From assembly GCF_003991155.1 (NCBI RefSeq), contig NZ_CP031293.1: a stretch of 64,000 nucleotides of DNA. One strand, written 5' to 3'. This stretch comes from Escherichia coli (GTDB lineage: Bacteria; Pseudomonadota; Gammaproteobacteria; Enterobacterales; Enterobacteriaceae). Position 1 is the stretch's first letter, and the number at the start of each line of letters is the position of its first letter. This document shows positions 10,576 to 63,699 of the stretch, in pieces. The notes below the pieces were generated by a model. That model did not search any database. It saw nothing but the letters and a program-made list of their open reading frames with translations, and was not told where the DNA came from. The position numbers and the translations under genes are program-made.

Positions 10576-10848
10576 CTACCTGCCTTGACGAAAGACCTTA
10601 AGAACATCGTTAAACTGACTTACGGATATGTCTTCTTTGAGAAGCTTTTCCAGAAATGCGTTTGGAATGAACGTATATCCCTCCTCTTTTGGTAGAGACG
10701 AGAGCAACGCCCTCGCCTCAGCCTTCAGAAGCTCAGTTCTGGCAACTTTCACAAAAGAGATTTGAGTTCTTTCATCAATGGAACGAAGGAAGCGCAAACG
10801 CTTAGCTTCTTTGTGTGTATCAGGTGGATTAAAGCCTTTGTTTCGCAT
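10576..10848 (-). CDS. Hypothetical protein between cII and O (90 aa)
   Basis: MRNKGFNPPDTHKEAKRLRFLRSIDERTQ...; GAGG RBS; stop abuts O start. Confidence 0.5.
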   Translation of the reverse strand: MRNKGFNPPDTHKEAKRLRFLRSIDERTQISFVKVARTELLKAEARALLSSLPKEEGYTFIPNAFLEKLLKEDISVSQFNDVLKVFRQGR

Positions 10849-10870
10849 ATAATTACCTCGCTGGATGTTG

Positions 10871-11164
10871 TTAAAATTCCATTTGTATTTGATCAGAACG
10901 CTCGGTTGCCGCCGGGCGTTTTTTATTGGTGAGAATCGAAGCAACTTGTCGTGCCAATCGAGCCATATCGTCGTCAACGACGCCCCATTCAAGAACAGCA
11001 AGCAGCATTGAGAACTTTGGAATCCAGTCCCTCTTCCACCTGCTGATCTGCGACTTATCAACTCCCACAGCTTCCGCTGTCTTCTCAGTTCCAAGCATTG
11101 CGATTTTGTTAAGCAACGCACTCTCGATTCGTAGAGCCTCGTTGCGTTTGTTTGCACGAACCAT
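10871..11164 (-). CDS. cII: Transcriptional activator CII
   Basis: MVRANKRNEALRIESALLNKIAMLGTEKTAEAVGVDKSQISRWKRDWIPKFSMLLAVLEWGVVDDDMARLARQVA..., near-identical to lambda CII as recalled. Confidence 0.9.
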   Translation of the reverse strand: MVRANKRNEALRIESALLNKIAMLGTEKTAEAVGVDKSQISRWKRDWIPKFSMLLAVLEWGVVDDDMARLARQVASILTNKKRPAATERSDQIQMEF

Positions 11165-11221
11165 ATGTAAGTATTTCCTTAACAAATAAGAAGTTATGCG
11201 CATCAACTTATGCGCGTTGTA

Positions 11222-11266
11222 TTCCCGCATTTCGGCGGGAATGAGGACCATGACTGTTAAAGAGCA
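11222..11266 (-). promoter_or_regulatory. nutR (boxA GCTCTTTAAC + boxB hairpin)
   Basis: On minus strand boxA at 11256-11265 then boxB TCCCGC-CGAAAT-GCGGGA at 11222-11241, between cro and cII. Confidence 0.55.
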
Positions 11267-11272
11267 ATTTGC

Positions 11273-11458
11273 TTATGCCGCTTTGCGGTAAGCGCTTTCT
11301 TGATACTTCAGGGCGCCAGCTGTAACGACTTCCAGTCGATAGGCGTCTTTCTCTGGGATGACTTCCTTCCACTGAGAGACTGCTGCGTCGCTAATGCCTA
11401 ACGCTTTAGCTACAGCACGCTGGGTTCCGAAGTGGTCGATAACATCTTTCTTGTACAT
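11273..11458 (-). CDS. cro: Cro-like repressor
   Basis: 61 aa HTH protein (QRAVAKALGISDAAVSQW) transcribed divergently from cI. Confidence 0.75.
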   Translation of the reverse strand: MYKKDVIDHFGTQRAVAKALGISDAAVSQWKEVIPEKDAYRLEVVTAGALKYQESAYRKAA

Positions 11459-11538
11459 AGACTCGCTCCGAAATTAAAGAACACTTAAATTATCCACTAA
11501 AGGAATCTTAAGTCAAGTTTATTTAAGATGTCTTAACT
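11459..11538. promoter_or_regulatory. OR operator region between cro and cI
   Basis: Inverted repeats with TCTTAA/TTAAGA half-sites (ATCTTAAGTCAAGTTTATTTAAGAT, TTAAGATGTCTTAA). Confidence 0.45.
11488..11516 (-). promoter_or_regulatory. PR promoter
   Basis: Minus strand TTGACT-17 nt-ATAATT upstream of cro. Confidence 0.55.
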
Positions 11539-12189
11539 ATGAAAACTCAATTGATGGGAGAGCGCATTCGCGCTCGGAGAAAAGAACTCAAGATCAGGCA
11601 GGCCGCACTTGGAAAGATGGTCGGCGTGTCTAATGTTGCCATATCTCAGTGGGAACGCTCTGAGACAGAGCCAAATGGAGAGAATCTTCTCGCCCTGGCT
11701 AATGCGTTGAAGTGTTCCCCTGACTATCTGATGAAAGGAGAGGAAAGTCTTTCAAACATTGCCTATCACAGTAGGCATGATCCAAGAGGGTCATACCCTC
11801 TGATTAGCTGGGTGAGCGCAGGATGCTGGATGGAAGCTGTAGAACCATATCATAAGCGTGCAATAGATAACTGGTACGATACAACCGTAGACTGTTCAGA
11901 AGATTCGTTTTGGTTGGATGTGAAGGGAGACTCAATGACGGCTCCGGCCGGTCTCAGTATCCCTGAAGGAATGATAATACTCGTCGATCCTGAAGTAGAG
12001 CCGCGTAACGGGAAACTGGTAGTTGCAAAGCTCGAAGGAGAAAACGAGGCAACTTTCAAGAAGTTAGTTATTGATGCAGGCAGGAAGTTTCTAAAACCAC
12101 TTAACCCACAATATCCGATGATCGAGATCAACGGAAACTGCAAAATCATCGGCGTAGTTGTCGATGCAAAACTAGCAAACCTTCCATAA
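11539..12189 (+). CDS. cI: CI repressor (HTH + S24 LexA-like peptidase domain)
   Basis: N-terminal HTH (VGVSNVAISQWERSE), C-terminal S24 motifs (GDSM, K in VVAKLEGE). Confidence 0.9.
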   Translation: MKTQLMGERIRARRKELKIRQAALGKMVGVSNVAISQWERSETEPNGENLLALANALKCSPDYLMKGEESLSNIAYHSRHDPRGSYPLISWVSAGCWMEAVEPYHKRAIDNWYDTTVDCSEDSFWLDVKGDSMTAPAGLSIPEGMIILVDPEVEPRNGKLVVAKLEGENEATFKKLVIDAGRKFLKPLNPQYPMIEINGNCKIIGVVVDAKLANLP

Positions 12190-12190
12190 G

Positions 12191-12212
12191 GGGGCATTCG
12201 CCCCTTTTTTTT
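12191..12212 (+). terminator. Intrinsic terminator after cI
   Basis: GGGGC-ATTC-GCCCC followed by TTTTTTTTATTT. Confidence 0.7.
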
Positions 12213-12280
12213 ATTTCCTTTAAAAATCAAAGCCAAACTTAAGTTACGAAAGAAAATTTAAGTTTTCTTCAAAAATACTC

Positions 12281-12309
12281 TTGACCATTAATTAAAGAGA
12301 TCTTAAATT
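12281..12309 (+). promoter_or_regulatory. PL promoter with flanking OL operator half-sites
   Basis: TTGACC-17 nt-TAAATT; flanking palindromes CTTAAATTTAAG and TTAAGT repeats. Confidence 0.5.
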
Positions 12310-12355
12310 TAAGCCATCAGCAGGACGCTGGAAGCCAAACGGAACAGATTGGCAG

Positions 12356-12396
12356 GCTCTTTAACATTGATGGGATTGTCCCGCCGAAATGCGGGA
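12356..12396 (+). promoter_or_regulatory. nutL (boxA GCTCTTTAAC + boxB hairpin)
   Basis: boxA 12356-12365; boxB TCCCGCCGAAATGCGGGA 12379-12396, identical to nutR boxB. Confidence 0.55.
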
Positions 12397-12795
12397 ACCA
12401 AAGAGTAGTTGGCTTTGGGATTGGATGAATGAGCAGGCTGATGCTCGACCAATGTATAAACAGCGCTCATGGCAAGCAGTAACCAATCTGCGCCTCAAGA
12501 CAGCGTCACTGGTAGTGCGGGCGCTCTAACCAGTAAGCCGGAGTTCAGCACCGGCCATCCAATCGCCAAAGTCAATTCCATAGGCGTTATGCAGCCGCCA
12601 CCTATTCAAGAAAGCTGCACAAGAGGTAGGAGGATTTATGTGAATACTTACATTCAATTGAGAGATTAATTAAATAGAACTGATCGAGCAGAGTCCATAA
12701 AGGCTCATAAATGCTCTTCCATCCCCGTCTAATTGGCGGGGAAGGAAACCACTTTGTAATAAAAAAATTCCAAAGTTGTTTCATCGGAGGTCAAC

Positions 12796-13095
12796 ATGAC
12801 AGTAGTCATTACATATCTAGCTGACGATAACGCCAGAAATCGCCGCAGAGCACGCAGGCAGGCTCAACGTGAACAGGCAATGCAAGAACAGCGACTGGCG
12901 CGAAAGATTGCGCTAAAGCTCTCTGGTTGCGTCAGAGCAGACAAAGCAGCATCACTCGGAAGCCTTCGCTGCAAGAAGGCAGAAGAAGTCGAGAGTAAAC
13001 AGAACCGTATTTACTACCGCAAGCCACGCAGTGAAATGGGTGTGACTTGTGTTGGTCGCCAGAAAATGAAATTAGGCAGCAAACCACTTATTTGA
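12796..13095 (+). CDS. N: Antitermination protein N
   Basis: Arg-rich motif NARNRRRARRQAQ; C-terminus RIYYRKPRSEMGVTCVGRQKMKLGSKPLI resembles lambda N. Confidence 0.8.
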   Translation: MTVVITYLADDNARNRRRARRQAQREQAMQEQRLARKIALKLSGCVRADKAASLGSLRCKKAEEVESKQNRIYYRKPRSEMGVTCVGRQKMKLGSKPLI

Positions 13096-13106: not shown

Positions 13107-13730
13107 ATGTCATCAATCCGCTTAACTACGAGAATGAAAGAGAAAATCGCTCGTAACGCTTTAATTAAGTCTGGGGTTTTCACTGAACTTGAAGAAGTAA
13201 CAAAGTTAAAGAACCAGCTTGCACTTGACGCCAGAGTTATTGCGTTTGGCGGTAAAAAGAAAACTGAGGAAGTGGATCAGTTATCATCCAGGTTAGTAGC
13301 TATAAGTGAAGAACTTGAAAAGATGGGATGTTCATTTTACTCATACGATGTTCGTTCTACTTCAATTTATCTGACTGTATCTGGCAGAAGGGTTGGATGG
13401 CATTCATATGGGAAAGACGGCAACGGCGAAGATATATTGCTCCCTACTCCAACCAAAGATAAATGCATGTTTGATGCAGAACACGAAATAACAAAAAGGT
13501 TTGATGAAATCTGCGCATTGCAACAAAAACTTGAAGCCAAGAAAAAGGATATCGAATCAAATGTATGGGCTGCTTTGAACTCAGTCACAACAGTTAAGCG
13601 ACTTATTGAAGTTTGGCCTGAAAGCAAAGAATTGCTACCAAAAGAAGCAGACAAAGCAAGTACAGCACTTCCTGCTTTACGGGTAGAAGATTTGAATAAG
13701 ATGATTGGACTTCCTTCCGAGTCCGCATAG
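13107..13730 (+). CDS. Hypothetical phage protein (207 aa) in the ral/sieB-equivalent position
   Basis: ORF with GAGGA RBS directly after N; no family recognised. Confidence 0.5.
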   Translation: MSSIRLTTRMKEKIARNALIKSGVFTELEEVTKLKNQLALDARVIAFGGKKKTEEVDQLSSRLVAISEELEKMGCSFYSYDVRSTSIYLTVSGRRVGWHSYGKDGNGEDILLPTPTKDKCMFDAEHEITKRFDEICALQQKLEAKKKDIESNVWAALNSVTTVKRLIEVWPESKELLPKEADKASTALPALRVEDLNKMIGLPSESA

Positions 13731-13864
13731 TCGGCCTTTATTTTTGGCACTAACAACAGAATAAACACTGCACTGTGTATTCATTCCAACGAGTGAATAC
13801 ACGGAGCAATGTCGCTCTTAACTAAACAGGAGCCGACTTGTTCTGATTATTGGAAATCTTCTTT

Positions 13865-13891
13865 GCCCTCCAGTGTGAGGGCGATTTTTTT
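13865..13891 (+). terminator. tL-like intrinsic terminator
   Basis: GCCCTC-CAGTGT-GAGGGC followed by GATTTTTTT, 12 nt upstream of next start codon. Confidence 0.5.
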
Positions 13892-13903
13892 GATGGAGGA
13901 TAT

Positions 13904-14872
13904 ATGAGTGAAGTAACAGATTTAGTTGTTATTGAAAAAGCAAATGCAATGACTGTATTTCAGTCTGCCGACCAGATTGAAGAAATCCTTCAAAGGGTTG
14001 AACGTGAAGTTATGTCCTTTGTGCCTGATATCACAACGGCAAAGGGCAGAAAGGAGATCGCTTCTCTGGCGTATAAAGTTGCGCAGACGAAAACATATCT
14101 CGATGGTCTTGGCAAAGACCTTGTTGCTGAACTGAAGGAAATTCCAAAGCTAATTGATGCCAACCGCAAGACAGTGCGCGATCGCCTTGATGAGCTGAAA
14201 GCCAAGGCACGCCAGCCTCTTACTGATTATGAGGAAGAACAGGCGCGGATTAAAGCCGAAGAAGAAGCTAAGGCAGCAGCTGAAGCTCTCGCAAAGCAAA
14301 TTGAGTCTGACCATGAAATAGCTATTTTGATGGATCGCGAATTTGACCGCCAAAGAGAAGAGGCAAGACTCAAAGCGGAGCAGGAAAAGCGAGAGCATGA
14401 AGAACGCTTAAAAAGAGAAGCTGAAGAGAAAGCCAGAGCAGAAGCCGAAGCAAAGGCAAAAGCCGAAATTGAAGCAGCAGCAAGGCGAGAAGCAGAAGCT
14501 AAGGCCGCAGCGGAACGTGCAGAGCGTGAACGCATTGAAGCCGAGCAACGAGCACAGCGCGAAGCAAAAGAGGCAGCAGAACGAGCTGAAAGAGAAAAGC
14601 AGGCGGCAATTGAAGCAGAACGCCGAAAAGCACAGGAGGAGGCTGAACGAATCCGGCGCGAGGCTGAAGCAAAAGAGCAAGCCAGAATAGCAGAAGAAAA
14701 AAGAATCAAGGACGAAGAAGAGCGTAGAGCAAAGGATAAAGCTCACCGGAAAGAAGTAAATAACAAAATACTTGCTGACCTTATCAAGGTTGGCGCATCA
14801 GAAGATGTTGCTAAAAATATCATAACAGCCATCGTAAAAGGCGAAGTATTCGCAACAAAAATAACCTACTAA
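13904..14872 (+). CDS. Hypothetical protein with long charged E/R/K/A-rich single alpha-helix segment
   Basis: N-terminal about 110 aa domain, about 170 aa low-complexity AEAK/ERAE repeats, short C-terminal domain; GGAGG RBS. Confidence 0.5.
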   Translation: MSEVTDLVVIEKANAMTVFQSADQIEEILQRVEREVMSFVPDITTAKGRKEIASLAYKVAQTKTYLDGLGKDLVAELKEIPKLIDANRKTVRDRLDELKAKARQPLTDYEEEQARIKAEEEAKAAAEALAKQIESDHEIAILMDREFDRQREEARLKAEQEKREHEERLKREAEEKARAEAEAKAKAEIEAAARREAEAKAAAERAERERIEAEQRAQREAKEAAERAEREKQAAIEAERRKAQEEAERIRREAEAKEQARIAEEKRIKDEEERRAKDKAHRKEVNNKILADLIKVGASEDVAKNIITAIVKGEVFATKITY

Positions 14873-19691: not shown

Positions 19692-19883
19692 ATGACCGAT
19701 ACCAGCCTGATTCCTGAGAAAGAAGTGATGAACAAGCTCGGTGTTTCATCACGTCAGACAATCTGGAACTATACCAAACGGCACGGATTTCCGAAGCCAG
19801 TCAGAACCCACCCCAAATCATACCTTCGTGAAGCTGTTGAAGGGTGGATTCTTAACGGTGGCGTTAATCAGAAATGCTCCTGA
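19692..19883 (+). CDS. xis: Excisionase / AlpA-family DNA-binding protein
   Basis: 63 aa small HTH protein overlapping the 3' end of int on the opposite strand. Confidence 0.7.
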   Translation: MTDTSLIPEKEVMNKLGVSSRQTIWNYTKRHGFPKPVRTHPKSYLREAVEGWILNGGVNQKCS

Positions 19884-21042
19884 TGTGCCAGAACAATTTA
19901 TCAGCGTGAAGCTCATACGCTTTGCGCTGAGCCTCTATCCAGTCGTGTTTATTGTATACGGACATTATCCCGCCAAGTTCATGACCGAGCATTCGCTCAG
20001 TAACATGAGGCTCGACATTCATCTCGGACAGACGTGTAACAAGCGTTCTTCTGAAATCGTGTGTTCGCCAGTAACCTAGATCCATCCCTCCCCTTATTCT
20101 ATTTACGAATCGGTTGGCTGCAGCGATGCTGATCGGTTTGTTTATGTCTTCTCCAGGGAAAAGAACATCATTGTACGTTGTCATGGCCTTTTCGAGGAAA
20201 GGCTTAATTTGTTCGAAGATTGGACGGCGGATAGCATTACCCATCTTGCTATGCTCTTTCGGTACGGTCCATACGTTTTCCAGCAGGTCAAATTCTGTCT
20301 TTTTTGCCAGCCTAAGCTCTGAGAGCCTCGCCCCCCACAGCATAAGCATCTGATGAAGTAGCTTATTTGACGTAGACGCACGGCTTCTTTCAATAGCAAG
20401 CCAAATCTTAGCCAGTTCGTGATACGACAGTACACGATCCCCTACCTCAGCGCGGGAGCCGAAGTCCCTTGGTTGGATGCTCATAATTGCGCAACTATCT
20501 ATCAACTGACGCCGCATGCACCAACTTATTGCTGATCTTAGTTGACTTAGCACCTGCCTTGCTCGGCGTGGATTATCTCTTTCTTCTTCGGTAAGCAGGT
20601 CAACCCATTGCTTAACCGTGATAGAAGATGCCGGACGATTAGGGAAGGCGTCATGCATGCGCTTCATAACCGTTGATCGGTAAAGTGCCTGGGTCTTTTC
20701 TCTGAGAGTTGTAGAGACGTAGTTGTCGAACCAGTAGTCGAGACACTGGGCGACCGTCATGGAGTTCTCCACCTTCTCTTCAAAATAAGTGCGTGGATCC
20801 GTTCCTGAGAAATAGAGCTTTCGCAAGTCAGCAGTGATCTGTCTGGCATCCTTCAAAGACATGGATGGGTATCGACCAAGCCCAAGTCGATTAGGCTTGC
20901 CATGCCAGCGATAGCGGTACTGGAACTGGATGACCCCCTTCGGTGAAATTCGTACGCTGAGGCCATCGGCATCAGCCACTTCTTGTGGGCCCGAATATGG
21001 TTTACCATAAATAGTACGAAGTTTTGTGTCGCTTATAGCCAT
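19864..21042 (-). CDS. int: Tyrosine integrase
   Basis: 392 aa; C-terminal catalytic region HDFRRT...LGHELGG...YNKH. Confidence 0.9.
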   Translation of the reverse strand: MAISDTKLRTIYGKPYSGPQEVADADGLSVRISPKGVIQFQYRYRWHGKPNRLGLGRYPSMSLKDARQITADLRKLYFSGTDPRTYFEEKVENSMTVAQCLDYWFDNYVSTTLREKTQALYRSTVMKRMHDAFPNRPASSITVKQWVDLLTEEERDNPRRARQVLSQLRSAISWCMRRQLIDSCAIMSIQPRDFGSRAEVGDRVLSYHELAKIWLAIERSRASTSNKLLHQMLMLWGARLSELRLAKKTEFDLLENVWTVPKEHSKMGNAIRRPIFEQIKPFLEKAMTTYNDVLFPGEDINKPISIAAANRFVNRIRGGMDLGYWRTHDFRRTLVTRLSEMNVEPHVTERMLGHELGGIMSVYNKHDWIEAQRKAYELHADKLFWHIRSISD

Positions 21043-21223
21043 AAATAATATTTGGTACGCTCAGAAATAATGGTTTGGTACACATCTGGTACACAATATC
21101 ACATGGACAACAGCGCACAGTAAACAACTATATTTGACGTTCGTAGACATACTCAGGTGAAAAAATGGTTGTTTTTCGAGTTATAACAGACAGTTAATTA
21201 ACTACAGTGGACAATGCTAGACA
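21043..21223. promoter_or_regulatory. Prophage attachment-site region (arm-type repeats; core not resolved)
   Basis: TGGTAC(G/A)C repeats at 21053, 21076, 21087 and GACAATG repeats near 21205-21225, between int and sbcB. Confidence 0.35.
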
Positions 21224-22648
21224 ATGACAGACACAGATAAACAACCTACCTTCCTCTTTCACGATTACGAAACCTTTGGAACGCACCCCGCGTTAGATCG
21301 CCCTGCACAGTTCGCAGCCATTCGCACTGATAACGAATTCAATGTCATCGGCGAACCCGAAGTCTTTTACTGCAAGCCCGCGGATGACTATTTACCCCAG
21401 CCTGGAGCAGTATTAATTACCGGTATTACCCCGCAGGAGGCACGGGCGAAAGGAGAAAACGAAGCCGCGTTTGCCGCCCGTATTCACTCGCTTTTTACCG
21501 TACCGAAGACCTGTATTCTGGGCTACAACAATGTGCGTTTCGACGACGAAGTCACACGCAACGTTTTTTATCGTAATTTCTACGATCCTTACGCCTGGAG
21601 CTGGCAGCATGATAACTCGCGCTGGGATTTACTGGATGTTATGCGTGCCTGTTATGCCCTGCGCCCGGAAGGAATAAACTGGCCTGAAAATGATGACGGT
21701 CTACCGAGCTTTCGCCTTGAGCATTTAACCAAAGCGAATGGTATTGAACATAGCAACGCCCACGATGCGATGGCTGATGTGTACGCCACTATTGCGATGG
21801 CGAAACTGGTAAAAACGCGTCAGCCACGCCTGTTTGATTATCTCTTTACCCATCGTAATAAACACAAACTGATGGCGTTGATTGATGTTCCGCAGATGAA
21901 ACCCCTGGTTCACGTTTCCGGAATGTTTGGGGCATGGCGTGGCAATACCAGCTGGGTGGCACCGCTGGCGTGGCATCCTGAAAATCGCAATGCCGTAATT
22001 ATGGTGGATTTGGCAGGAGACATTTCGCCATTACTGGAGCTGGATAGCGACACATTGCGCGAGCGTTTATATACCGCAAAAGCCGATCTTGGCGATAACG
22101 CCGCCGTTCCGGTTAAGCTGGTGCATATCAATAAATGTCCGGTACTGGCCCAGGCGAATACGCTACGCCCGGAAGATGCCGACCGACTGGGAATTAATCG
22201 TCAGCATTGCCTCGATAACCTAAAAATTCTGCGTGAAAATCCGCAAGTGCGTGAAAAAGTGGTGGCGATATTCGCGGAAGCCGAACCGTTTACGCCTTCA
22301 GATAACGTGGATGCACAGCTTTATAATGGCTTTTTCAGTGACGCCGATCGTGCAGCAATGAAAATTGTGCTGGAAACCGAGCCGCGTAATTTACCGGCAC
22401 TGGATATCACTTTTGTTGATAAACGAATTGAAAAACTGTTGTTCAATTATCGAGCGCGCAACTTCCCGGGGACGCTGGATTATGCCGAGCAGCAACGCTG
22501 GCTTGAGCACCGCCGCCAGGTCTTCACGCCAGAGTTTTTGCAGGGCTACGCTGATGAATTGCAGATGCTGGCACAACAGTATGCCGATGACAAAGAGAAA
22601 GTGGCGCTGTTAAAAGCGCTTTGGCAGTACGCGGAAGAGATTGTCTAA
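21224..22648 (+). CDS. sbcB: Exodeoxyribonuclease I
   Basis: 474 aa, matches E. coli SbcB throughout except first about 9 residues (MTDTDKQP here). Confidence 0.9.
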   Translation: MTDTDKQPTFLFHDYETFGTHPALDRPAQFAAIRTDNEFNVIGEPEVFYCKPADDYLPQPGAVLITGITPQEARAKGENEAAFAARIHSLFTVPKTCILGYNNVRFDDEVTRNVFYRNFYDPYAWSWQHDNSRWDLLDVMRACYALRPEGINWPENDDGLPSFRLEHLTKANGIEHSNAHDAMADVYATIAMAKLVKTRQPRLFDYLFTHRNKHKLMALIDVPQMKPLVHVSGMFGAWRGNTSWVAPLAWHPENRNAVIMVDLAGDISPLLELDSDTLRERLYTAKADLGDNAAVPVKLVHINKCPVLAQANTLRPEDADRLGINRQHCLDNLKILRENPQVREKVVAIFAEAEPFTPSDNVDAQLYNGFFSDADRAAMKIVLETEPRNLPALDITFVDKRIEKLLFNYRARNFPGTLDYAEQQRWLEHRRQVFTPEFLQGYADELQMLAQQYADDKEKVALLKALWQYAEEIV

Positions 22649-28019: not shown

Positions 28020-28070
28020 ATGACACGCGTTCAATTTAAACACCACCATCATCACCATCATCCTGACTAG
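28020..28070 (+). CDS. hisL: his operon leader peptide
   Basis: MTRVQFKHHHHHHHPD, seven consecutive His codons. Confidence 0.85.
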   Translation: MTRVQFKHHHHHHHPD

Positions 28071-52189: not shown

Positions 52190-52228
52190 CACGCTACCGC
52201 CCCTGGCTCAACAGCTACCAGCGTACTG
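52190..52228 (-). promoter_or_regulatory. JUMPstart element with ops (GGCGGTAGCGTG)
   Basis: Minus strand CAGTACGCTGGTAGCTGTTGAGCCAGGGGCGGTAGCGTG upstream of wzx. Confidence 0.6.
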
Positions 52229-58724: not shown

Positions 58725-59325
58725 GCCGTTTTTTGCCTGATGCGACGCTAACGCGTCTTATCAGACCTACAAGATCCGAGCACAGAACCGTAGGACGGAT
58801 AAGGCGTTCACGCCGCATCCGGCATTCAGTGCCTGATGCGACGCTGACGCGTCTTATCAGGCCTACAAGACCCGAGCACAGAGCCGTAGGACGGATAAGG
58901 CGTTTTACGCCGCATCCGGCATTCAGTGCCTGATGCGACGCTGACGCGTCTTATCAGGCCTACAAGATCCGAGCACAGAACCGTAGGCCGGATAAGGCGT
59001 TTTACGCCGCATCCGGCATTCAGTGCCTGATGCGACGCTGGCGCGTCTTATCAGGCCTACAAGACCCGAGCACAGCCCCCCAGGACGGATAAGGCGTTTT
59101 ACGCCGCATCCGGCATTCAGTGCCTGATGCGACGCTGACGCGTCTTATCAAGCCTACAAGATCCGAGCACAGAACCGTAGGCCGGATAAGGCGTTTTACG
59201 CCGCATCCGGCATTCAGTGCCTGATGCGACGCTGGCGCGTCTTATCAGGCCTACAAGACCCGAGCACAGCCCCCCAGGACGGATAAGGCGTTTTACGCCG
59301 CATCCGGCAACCGTTGCCGGAACCG
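58725..59325. repeat. Tandem REP/BIME array (about six units of about 98 bp)
   Basis: Repeated GCCTGATGCGACGCTGACGCGTCTTATCAGGCCTACAAG...GGATAAGGCGTTTACGCCGCATCCGGCA units. Confidence 0.8.
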
Positions 59326-63636: not shown

Positions 63637-63699
63637 ATCGTTACCCTTTTTCAGGCAATAGTTGGCCCTGACCGAAACGGCCAATTTTGTTTTTGTCGT

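Follow-up and report, generated by a model that had tools for sequence, protein, structure and literature searches.

Genes of the immunity and early control region

The sequence analysed, referred to below as the window, is a stretch of 64,000 nucleotides from an Escherichia coli chromosome (contig NZ_CP031293.1, assembly GCF_003991155.1). It includes prophage genes and the bacterial chromosome around them: the his leader is found at 28046, and the interval from the prophage integrase to his contains sbcB, tsuA, plaP and yeeZ. The region of interest contains four genes, identified by profile searches, and a short repeat located within one of them; they are reported below with their coordinates and strand.

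10871..11164, minus: cII transcriptional activator, ATG at 11164, the first gene past nutR (Pfam Phage_CII, E = 5e-48).
11142..11155, plus: CII-binding repeat of PRE, TTGC-N6-TTGC (TTGCGTTTGTTTGC), inside the 5' end of cII.
11273..11458, minus: cro, 61 aa, of the P22 type (Pfam P22_Cro, E = 8.7e-28; matches PDB 1RZS).
11539..12189, plus: cI/C2 repressor, 216 aa, with a helix-turn-helix and an S24 autocleavage domain (Pfam HTH_3, Peptidase_S24).
12796..13095, plus: N antiterminator, 99 aa (PHROG 271, 'anti-termination protein N-like', E = 1e-36).

A gene for the O protein, detected by the Pfam model Phage_rep_O, is also present. The TTGC-N6-TTGC repeat is annotated as CII site and pRE in the records of phages 21 and mEp235.

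The repressor shares 97% of its residues with the phage 21 repressor and 92% with P22 C2, with one differing position in its DNA-binding domain (residues 3-53), and the available structures of the N-terminal domain of P22 C2 (PDB 1ADR, 2R1J) begin at the same methionine as the repressor described here. Similarly, Cro is 97% identical to its phage 21 counterpart and 95% identical to that of P22. Judged by these sequence comparisons, the immunity switch is of the P22/phage-21 (immC/imm21) type.

Operators, promoters and terminator

Searching the window with the 18-bp P22-type operator pattern ANTNAAGNNNNCTTNANT returned 8 matches, against 2.4 expected in shuffled sequences. Four exact matches and one match with a single mismatch are clustered between the two nut sites, and these align base-for-base with the annotated operators of P22 and phi21; a further, weak match to the pattern is a candidate for a third OL operator (OL3). 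The operators, the promoters and the terminator following cI are the following.

11473-11490, unstranded: OR1, exact match to ANTNAAGNNNNCTTNANT, overlapping the -10 hexamer and the start of PR; identical in P22 and phage 21.
11496-11513, unstranded: OR2, exact match, with a single base difference from phage 21 and likewise from P22.
11521-11538, unstranded: OR3, exact match, its last base adjoining the cI ATG.
12256-12273, unstranded: OL2, one mismatch to the pattern, aligned with phage 21 OL2.
12291-12308, unstranded: OL1, exact match, overlapping the spacer and -10 hexamer of PL; aligned with phage 21 OL1.
11516..11511 and 11493..11488, minus: PR, TTGACT and ATAATT at 17-nt spacing, homologous to the annotated early-right promoter of P22.
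11501-11506 and 11524-11529, plus: putative PRM, -35 AGGAAT and -10 TAAGAT, with the 5' end at A11535, transferred from the P22 record by alignment.
12281-12286 and 12304-12309, plus: PL, TTGACC and TAAATT at 17-nt spacing.
12188-12215, plus: tIMM, intrinsic terminator after cI, GGGGGCATTCGCCCC followed by a T run, detected by the terminator scan.

Over approximately 110 nt the OR region differs by one base from phage 21 and by three bases from P22. Operators and the promoters PR, PRM and PL are annotated in the records of both phages, and tIMM has a conserved counterpart in phage 21 that bears a terminator annotation. The start of PL is predicted at A12316, a position transferred from the 5' nucleotide of the early-left RNA in the P22 record, and PR is expected to start near 11481.

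A preliminary description of this DNA, made from the sequence alone, had recognized a complete divergent promoter set in the immunity region, and each element it named can be matched to one in characterised relatives. For the operator half-sites, which it gave as TCTTAA/TTAAGA, a better formula is A(T/C)T(T/A)AAG, whose core is CTTAA. A minor misreading concerns the common formula TTGACN-17-(T/A)AAATT proposed for PR and PL, which describes PL correctly and fails for PR, where the -10 hexamer, ATAATT, does not fit at its second base; PR may alternatively be read with GATAAT at a spacing of 16. The near-identity of the DNA-binding domain and of the operators to those of the relatives suggests that the repressor would bind these sites and would confer imm21/P22 immunity.

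Start of the cI transcript

As had been noticed earlier, the cI start codon follows the last operator directly, OR3 ending at 11538 and the ATG beginning at 11539. The operator half-site preceding the ATG, GTCTTAACT, contains no purine-rich motif and no Shine-Dalgarno sequence. From this arrangement a leaderless PRM transcript, as in lambda, had been proposed; the lack of a Shine-Dalgarno is upheld, whereas a 5' end placed on the AUG itself is at variance with the P22 record, which gives a leader of 4 nt. There, the PRM transcript is marked as beginning 4 nt ahead of the c2 ATG, with the -10 element placed at the hexamer corresponding to TAAGAT in our sequence. Since P22, phage 21 and the window have the junction CTTAACTATG in common, the start is expected at A11535. 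A transcript strictly leaderless as in lambda, beginning on the A of the cI ATG at 11539, would agree with the abutment of OR3 and the ATG and with the composition of GTCTTAACT; moreover, the exact start of transcription may vary over a few nucleotides, and the value of 4 nt is itself a transfer from the P22 annotation. We nevertheless regard such a start as unlikely, because position 11535 lies 6 nt from the end of the -10 hexamer at 11529, a normal spacing, while 11539 lies 10 nt from it, and because the marked P22 position is embedded in the same junction. The cI mRNA is thus expected, by analogy with P22, to carry a 4-nt leader devoid of a Shine-Dalgarno, i.e. to be leaderless-like and not strictly leaderless.

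The nut sites

Two nut sites, located on opposite strands, flank the switch: nutR sits 3' of cro and nutL sits 3' of PL. Their boxA and boxB elements had been described as identical, and both the coordinates and the motifs are read in the same way here.

11265..11256, minus: nutR boxA, GCTCTTTAAC, 7 nt past the cro stop; the motif is shared with the boxA-R annotated in phage 21 and P22.
11240..11223, minus: nutR boxB hairpin, TCCCGCCGAAATGCGGGA; identical to the annotated HK620 nutR.
12356-12365, plus: nutL boxA, GCTCTTTAAC, aligned with phage 21 boxA-L.
12379-12396, plus: nutL boxB, the same 18-mer, with a 6-bp stem and the hexaloop CGAAAU; identical to the annotated HK620 nutL.

In both sites the boxB hairpin reads TCCCGC-CGAAAT-GCGGGA. 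The stem of the nutR copy, which also exposes the hexaloop CGAAAU, can be extended to 8 bp (11242..11221), and the two boxB copies form a perfect inverted repeat of 19 nt. The spacer between boxA and boxB is 15 nt long in nutR and 13 nt in nutL. The boxA sequence, which we take to be equal to the core of the E. coli rrn boxA, occurs twice in the 64 kb window, against an expectation of 0.15, and both occurrences are the nut sites; for the composite boxA-N15-boxB the expectation in shuffled sequences is 0.00.

Folding of the boxB RNAs, proposed earlier as a check, bore out the hairpins: the isolated structures have energies of -12.5 kcal/mol (nutR) and -10.5 kcal/mol (nutL), and by the same measure their stability is similar to, or greater than, that of the boxB hairpins of lambda, P22 and phi21. 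Windows of 56 nt around the hairpins gave fold z-scores of -0.75 and -1.19, which are unremarkable, as expected for short hairpins. No Rfam match was obtained between 10500 and 13200, either at the gathering threshold, in a scan of the whole window, or at E <= 1; nut sites do not constitute an Rfam family. The possibility that the hairpins act as intrinsic terminators was ruled out, neither copy being followed by a T run.

A mosaic N protein

The N protein is 70% identical overall to that of phage 21, all the divergence being confined to residues 1-33. These constitute an arginine-rich motif (ARM) of the HK620 type, including the stretch ARNRRRARRQAQR at residues 13-25, read directly from the translation, and residues 34-99 are of the phage-21 type. 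Along the gene, DNA identity to phage 21 is about 40% as far as approximately nt 100 (about codon 33) and 97-100% beyond, forming a sharp joint. So abrupt a jump favours a recombination joint over a gradual divergence of the ARM from phi21, which is accordingly disfavoured. By sequence, N is a mosaic, in which an RNA-binding N-terminus of the HK620 type is joined to a body of the phage-21 type.

The 37 C-terminal residues of N align with the RNA polymerase-binding end of its lambda counterpart in PDB 6GOV (E = 9e-4), while the Pfam model N_peptide matches the protein with 18 bits, below its cut-off of 27.9 bits. The ARM has in common with lambda N the pattern RRA..QAQ, in an alignment which is non-significant, and Trp18 of lambda N finds no counterpart.

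Correspondence between N and boxB types

Structural work on peptide-RNA recognition has taken the N-peptide/boxB pairs of lambda, P22 and phi21 as models, and the lambda pair has found wide use as a tool for RNA tethering. The type of the N ARM was tabulated against the type of boxB in ten phages, the window included. Four types were found, in one-to-one correspondence.

HK620-type ARM: boxB loop CGAAAU, in the window, HF4s and HK620.
phi21 ARM: boxB loop CUAACC, in phage 21, mEp235 and mEpX1.
P22 ARM: boxB loop GACAA, in P22 and SH2026Stx1.
lambda ARM: boxB loop GAAGA, in lambda and Sf101.

In these ten phages the pairing of ARM and boxB is independent both of the immunity region and of the C-terminus of N. 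A wider set was provided by 80 IMG/VR viral contigs encoding the N of the window, 74 of which have an exact boxB copy at each side. No variants of boxB within 2 mismatches were found among the 80, where the sequence is either exact or missing; covariation of base pairs cannot be traced within the class because boxB never varies in this set, and covariation of whole modules, i.e. of ARM type with boxB type, was used in its place. At 74 other loci the nut pair is found around repressor/cro cassettes of at least five unrelated kinds, imm-lambda included. Across related contigs the spacer and the flanks of nutR are variable, and boxA and boxB are invariant. One related contig (L056) encodes N with no nut site within 3 kb upstream, and another contig (L028) has a nutR containing the nutL-type spacer, which indicates an exchange between the two sites. 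Of 5,426 complete E. coli genomes, 522 contain the nutL segment, which is also present in 26 phage records. Taken at the level of sequence, the comparison provides good evidence that the boxB hairpin is the RNA target of N.

In the phi21 complex (PDB 1NYB) the UAAC of the loop CUAACC adopts a GNRA-like turn, with a C-C pair next to it (PMC12550061). By analogy, the CGAAAU hexaloop may contain a real GAAA tetraloop bordered by C·U. It may tentatively be proposed, at slightly less than an even chance, that the HK620-type ARM (DDNARNRRRARRQAQREQ) and the boxB UCCCGC-CGAAAU-GCGGGA represent a further class of peptide-RNA specificity, in which a GNRA (GAAA) tetraloop would be closed by a non-canonical C·U, with a phi21-like layout and a lambda-like reading (RRA..QAQ) that dispenses with Trp18. 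In this case, a clean switch of specificity would have been obtained by swapping a cassette of 33 codons together with two RNA sites of 20 nt. That divergence of the N terminus implies a new boxB specificity has been pointed out, in general terms, in a related paper on phage epsilon34 (PMC2629481). No study of the N-boxB pair of the HK620 or CUS-3 type, binding assays included, was found in the searchable literature.

Functional interpretation

The features described above very probably make up the early control region of a lambdoid prophage similar to CUS-3 and HK620, organized as the textbook lambda/P22 circuit: a switch of the P22/phage-21 type, nut sites on the PL and PR transcripts, and a mosaic N with the matching boxB of the HK620 type. 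The sequence elements, their homology and the association of ARM with boxB types are demonstrated by the comparison, and binding, antitermination and transcript 5' ends are those that we infer for such a circuit. In the lysogen-to-induction scheme of this kind, the C2-type repressor and the P22-type Cro would compete for the three 18-bp OR operators, which control the divergent PR and PRM, and would also act at two or three OL operators, controlling PL. Repressor bound at OR and OL would shut off PR and PL and regulate PRM. After induction, the PL and PR transcripts would each carry boxA, followed 13-15 nt downstream by boxB. The boxA RNA (GCUCUUUAAC) is predicted to recruit NusB/NusE, the N-terminal arginine-rich helix of N to bind the boxB hairpin, and the rest of N to engage NusA and RNA polymerase, which would then pass the terminators into cII-O-P on one side and into the early-left genes on the other. 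Both the binding of N to boxB and Nus-dependent antitermination are assigned here by analogy.

The elements might instead be real but inert, in a decaying prophage remnant where neither the N/nut system nor the switch operates any longer. The window holds only part of the prophage, and degraded copies do exist, as illustrated by the contig in which N is retained with no nut site within the 3 kb upstream. However, none of the ORFs cII, cro, cI and N is truncated, and all show 97-100% identity to their counterparts in the isolated phages CUS-3, HK620, HF4s and N7, relative to which promoters, operators and nut sites show no disruptive changes, and an inert remnant is therefore considered improbable. 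Far less credible still is the view that the 19-nt hairpins do not bind a protein, being either recombination 'boundary sequences' or copies kept identical by recent gene conversion. The term is the one used for the cI-N interval in the CUS-3 record, and conversion would account for the nutL-type spacer found in the nutR of one contig. This explanation is disfavoured by the spacers and flanks, which differ between nutL and nutR while boxA and boxB are the same, by the hairpin type, which switches with the ARM type of N and not with the flanking genes, and by the position of the hairpins and their spacing to boxA, which match the characterised nut sites of lambda, P22 and phi21. A working control region, in which boxB is the probable target of N, remains the preferred interpretation.

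Beyond annotation the importance of the region is small, this being a common E. coli prophage control region whose parts are labelled confidently by homology. A modest residual value lies in the N-boxB pair, which is very common and seemingly has never been studied biochemically. If orthogonal to those of lambda, P22 and phi21, it would offer a natural fourth pair for tethering, and one which combines a real GNRA loop with a phi21-like hexaloop could be useful.

Comparison with known phages

Judging from the sequence records, the whole arrangement is already present, and in part annotated, in the published phages CUS-3 and HK620. In HK620 (AF335538, a record citing Clark et al. 2001) nutL and nutR are identical to those of the window throughout boxA, spacer and boxB, and both are already annotated as 'putative N-utilization' sites. 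Residues 1-63 of HK620 N are encoded by DNA approximately 97% identical to that of the N described here, whereas the C-terminus differs past about codon 63; the set of repressor, cro and operators also differs. CUS-3 (CP000711), a phage of E. coli K1, is 99% identical over the interval cII-cro-cI-PL-nutL-N, and has the same immunity type and the same N. The window differs from CUS-3 by about 75 additional nt in the leader between nutL and N, and by the gene after N, which belongs to the Nmad5 family in the window and is ral in CUS-3. The nut sites are unannotated in the CUS-3 record.

Phage 21 (OL657228) and P22 immC (NC_002371) resemble the window in their operators, with 1-3 base differences, and in PR, PRM, PL, terminator and boxA. 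In phage 21, N residues 34-99 are nearly identical to those of the window, and boxA is conserved along with its flanks, whereas both boxB hairpins are different. Residues 1-33 of N differ in phage 21 and in P22, as do the boxB loops, which are CUAACC in phi21 and GACAA in P22.

The general plan is shared with lambda, where nutL is similarly located after PL and nutR after cro, boxA precedes boxB, N has an N-terminal ARM and a homologous C-terminus, and cI is preceded by no Shine-Dalgarno. The lambda boxA is CGCTCTTA, and that of the window is GCTCTTTAAC; the lambda boxB is a pentaloop (GAAAA/GAAGA), in contrast to the hexaloop CGAAAU of the window. Finally, transcription from lambda PRM starts on the ATG, while in the window it probably starts 4 nt before it.

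Evidence of exchange between nut sites

Among the related contigs, one carries a nutR whose spacer is of the nutL type: in L028 (IMGVR_UViG_2718218171_000002), a viral contig encoding the N of the window, the nutR site at locus position ~1762 (- strand) contains ACATTGATGGGATTG between boxA and boxB. Such an arrangement is evidence that nutL and nutR have undergone exchange, via the boxA and boxB common to both. Another viral contig, L056 (IMGVR_UViG_2731957842_000007), has the same N gene, but the 3 kb preceding that gene contain neither boxA nor boxB; rearrangement or decay of the prophage may account for this.

The leader between PL and N, which beyond nutL occupies 12398-12795 (+ strand), measures ~480 nt in the window versus ~190 nt in phage 21. 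It includes a segment of ~75 nt which is missing from CUS-3, and of which several alternative versions occur across the related contigs. Near this segment lies an inverted repeat (12414-12427 and 12556-12569), whose arms pair in the predicted fold.

Repressor start and operator labels in the phage 21 record

In the phage 21 record (OL657228) the repressor, at locus 1865-2437, is annotated from an internal methionine, as a protein of 190 aa. Phage 21 nevertheless conserves the ATG that abuts OR3, the operator next to the repressor gene, and this start codon gives a repressor of 216 aa (1787-2437 in the same record), collinear with P22 C2, and the solved P22 C2 structures begin at the methionine of the OR3-abutting ATG. 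The record thus probably sets the start too far 3'. Its labelling of the OR sites is inconsistent as well: the cro-proximal site is called OR3 and the name OR2 is used for two sites.

The interval between nutR and cII, and RNA elements elsewhere

The following RNA elements were located in the window, the last three by Rfam.

11191-11215, - strand sense: second small hairpin, GCGCAT-AAGTTG-ATGCGC, between nutR boxB and cII, just 3' of boxB
~10848-10927, + strand: OOP-like RNA, antisense to the 3' end of cII
10895-10922, + strand: intrinsic terminator with a T run after it, inside the interval of the OOP-like RNA
58793-59251, + strand: five tandem copies, ~97 nt apart, of naRNA4 (nucleoid-associated ncRNA / REP-type repeat)
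52190-52228, - strand: JUMPstart element
63641-63690, - strand: algC RNA motif

Every related contig has the small hairpin, with a few substitutions; pairing is preserved by some of these (A to G, giving U·G) and not by others. The HK620 record has tR1 annotated at this place. For the OOP-like RNA, a perfect TATAAT is present at 10848-10853, conserved with the oop promoter region of P22 and HK620; in an Rfam search of the region, no family matches this RNA.

Prophage end and early-left genes

The end of the prophage falls within the interval 19864-22648, and the genes considered there and in the early-left operon are listed below.

19864-21042, - strand: tyrosine integrase gene, at the prophage end
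21224-22648, + strand: sbcB, adjoining the integrase gene
13107-13730, + strand: Nmad5 protein gene, 207 aa, directly 3' of N (Pfam E = 3.7e-72)
13850-14872, + strand: 340-aa ORF of the early-left operon

Since the integrase gene adjoins sbcB, the prophage has sbcB as its neighbour and lies upstream of the his operon. In the 340-aa product E, A, K and R are extremely abundant, with a long stretch that resembles a coiled coil (AEEEAKAAAEALAK…); in the E. coli genome that matches best, a 'coiled-coil domain-containing protein' is annotated at the corresponding early-left place, the two being matched by position. Nmad5 stands for 'nucleotide modification associated domain 5', and the window protein also belongs to PHROG 1965, of unknown function. 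In CUS-3 the slot held by this gene is occupied by ral; mEp235 and SH2026Stx1 have, in the same early-left slot after N or Nun, ORFs of equal length (207 aa), annotated as 'hypothetical protein'.
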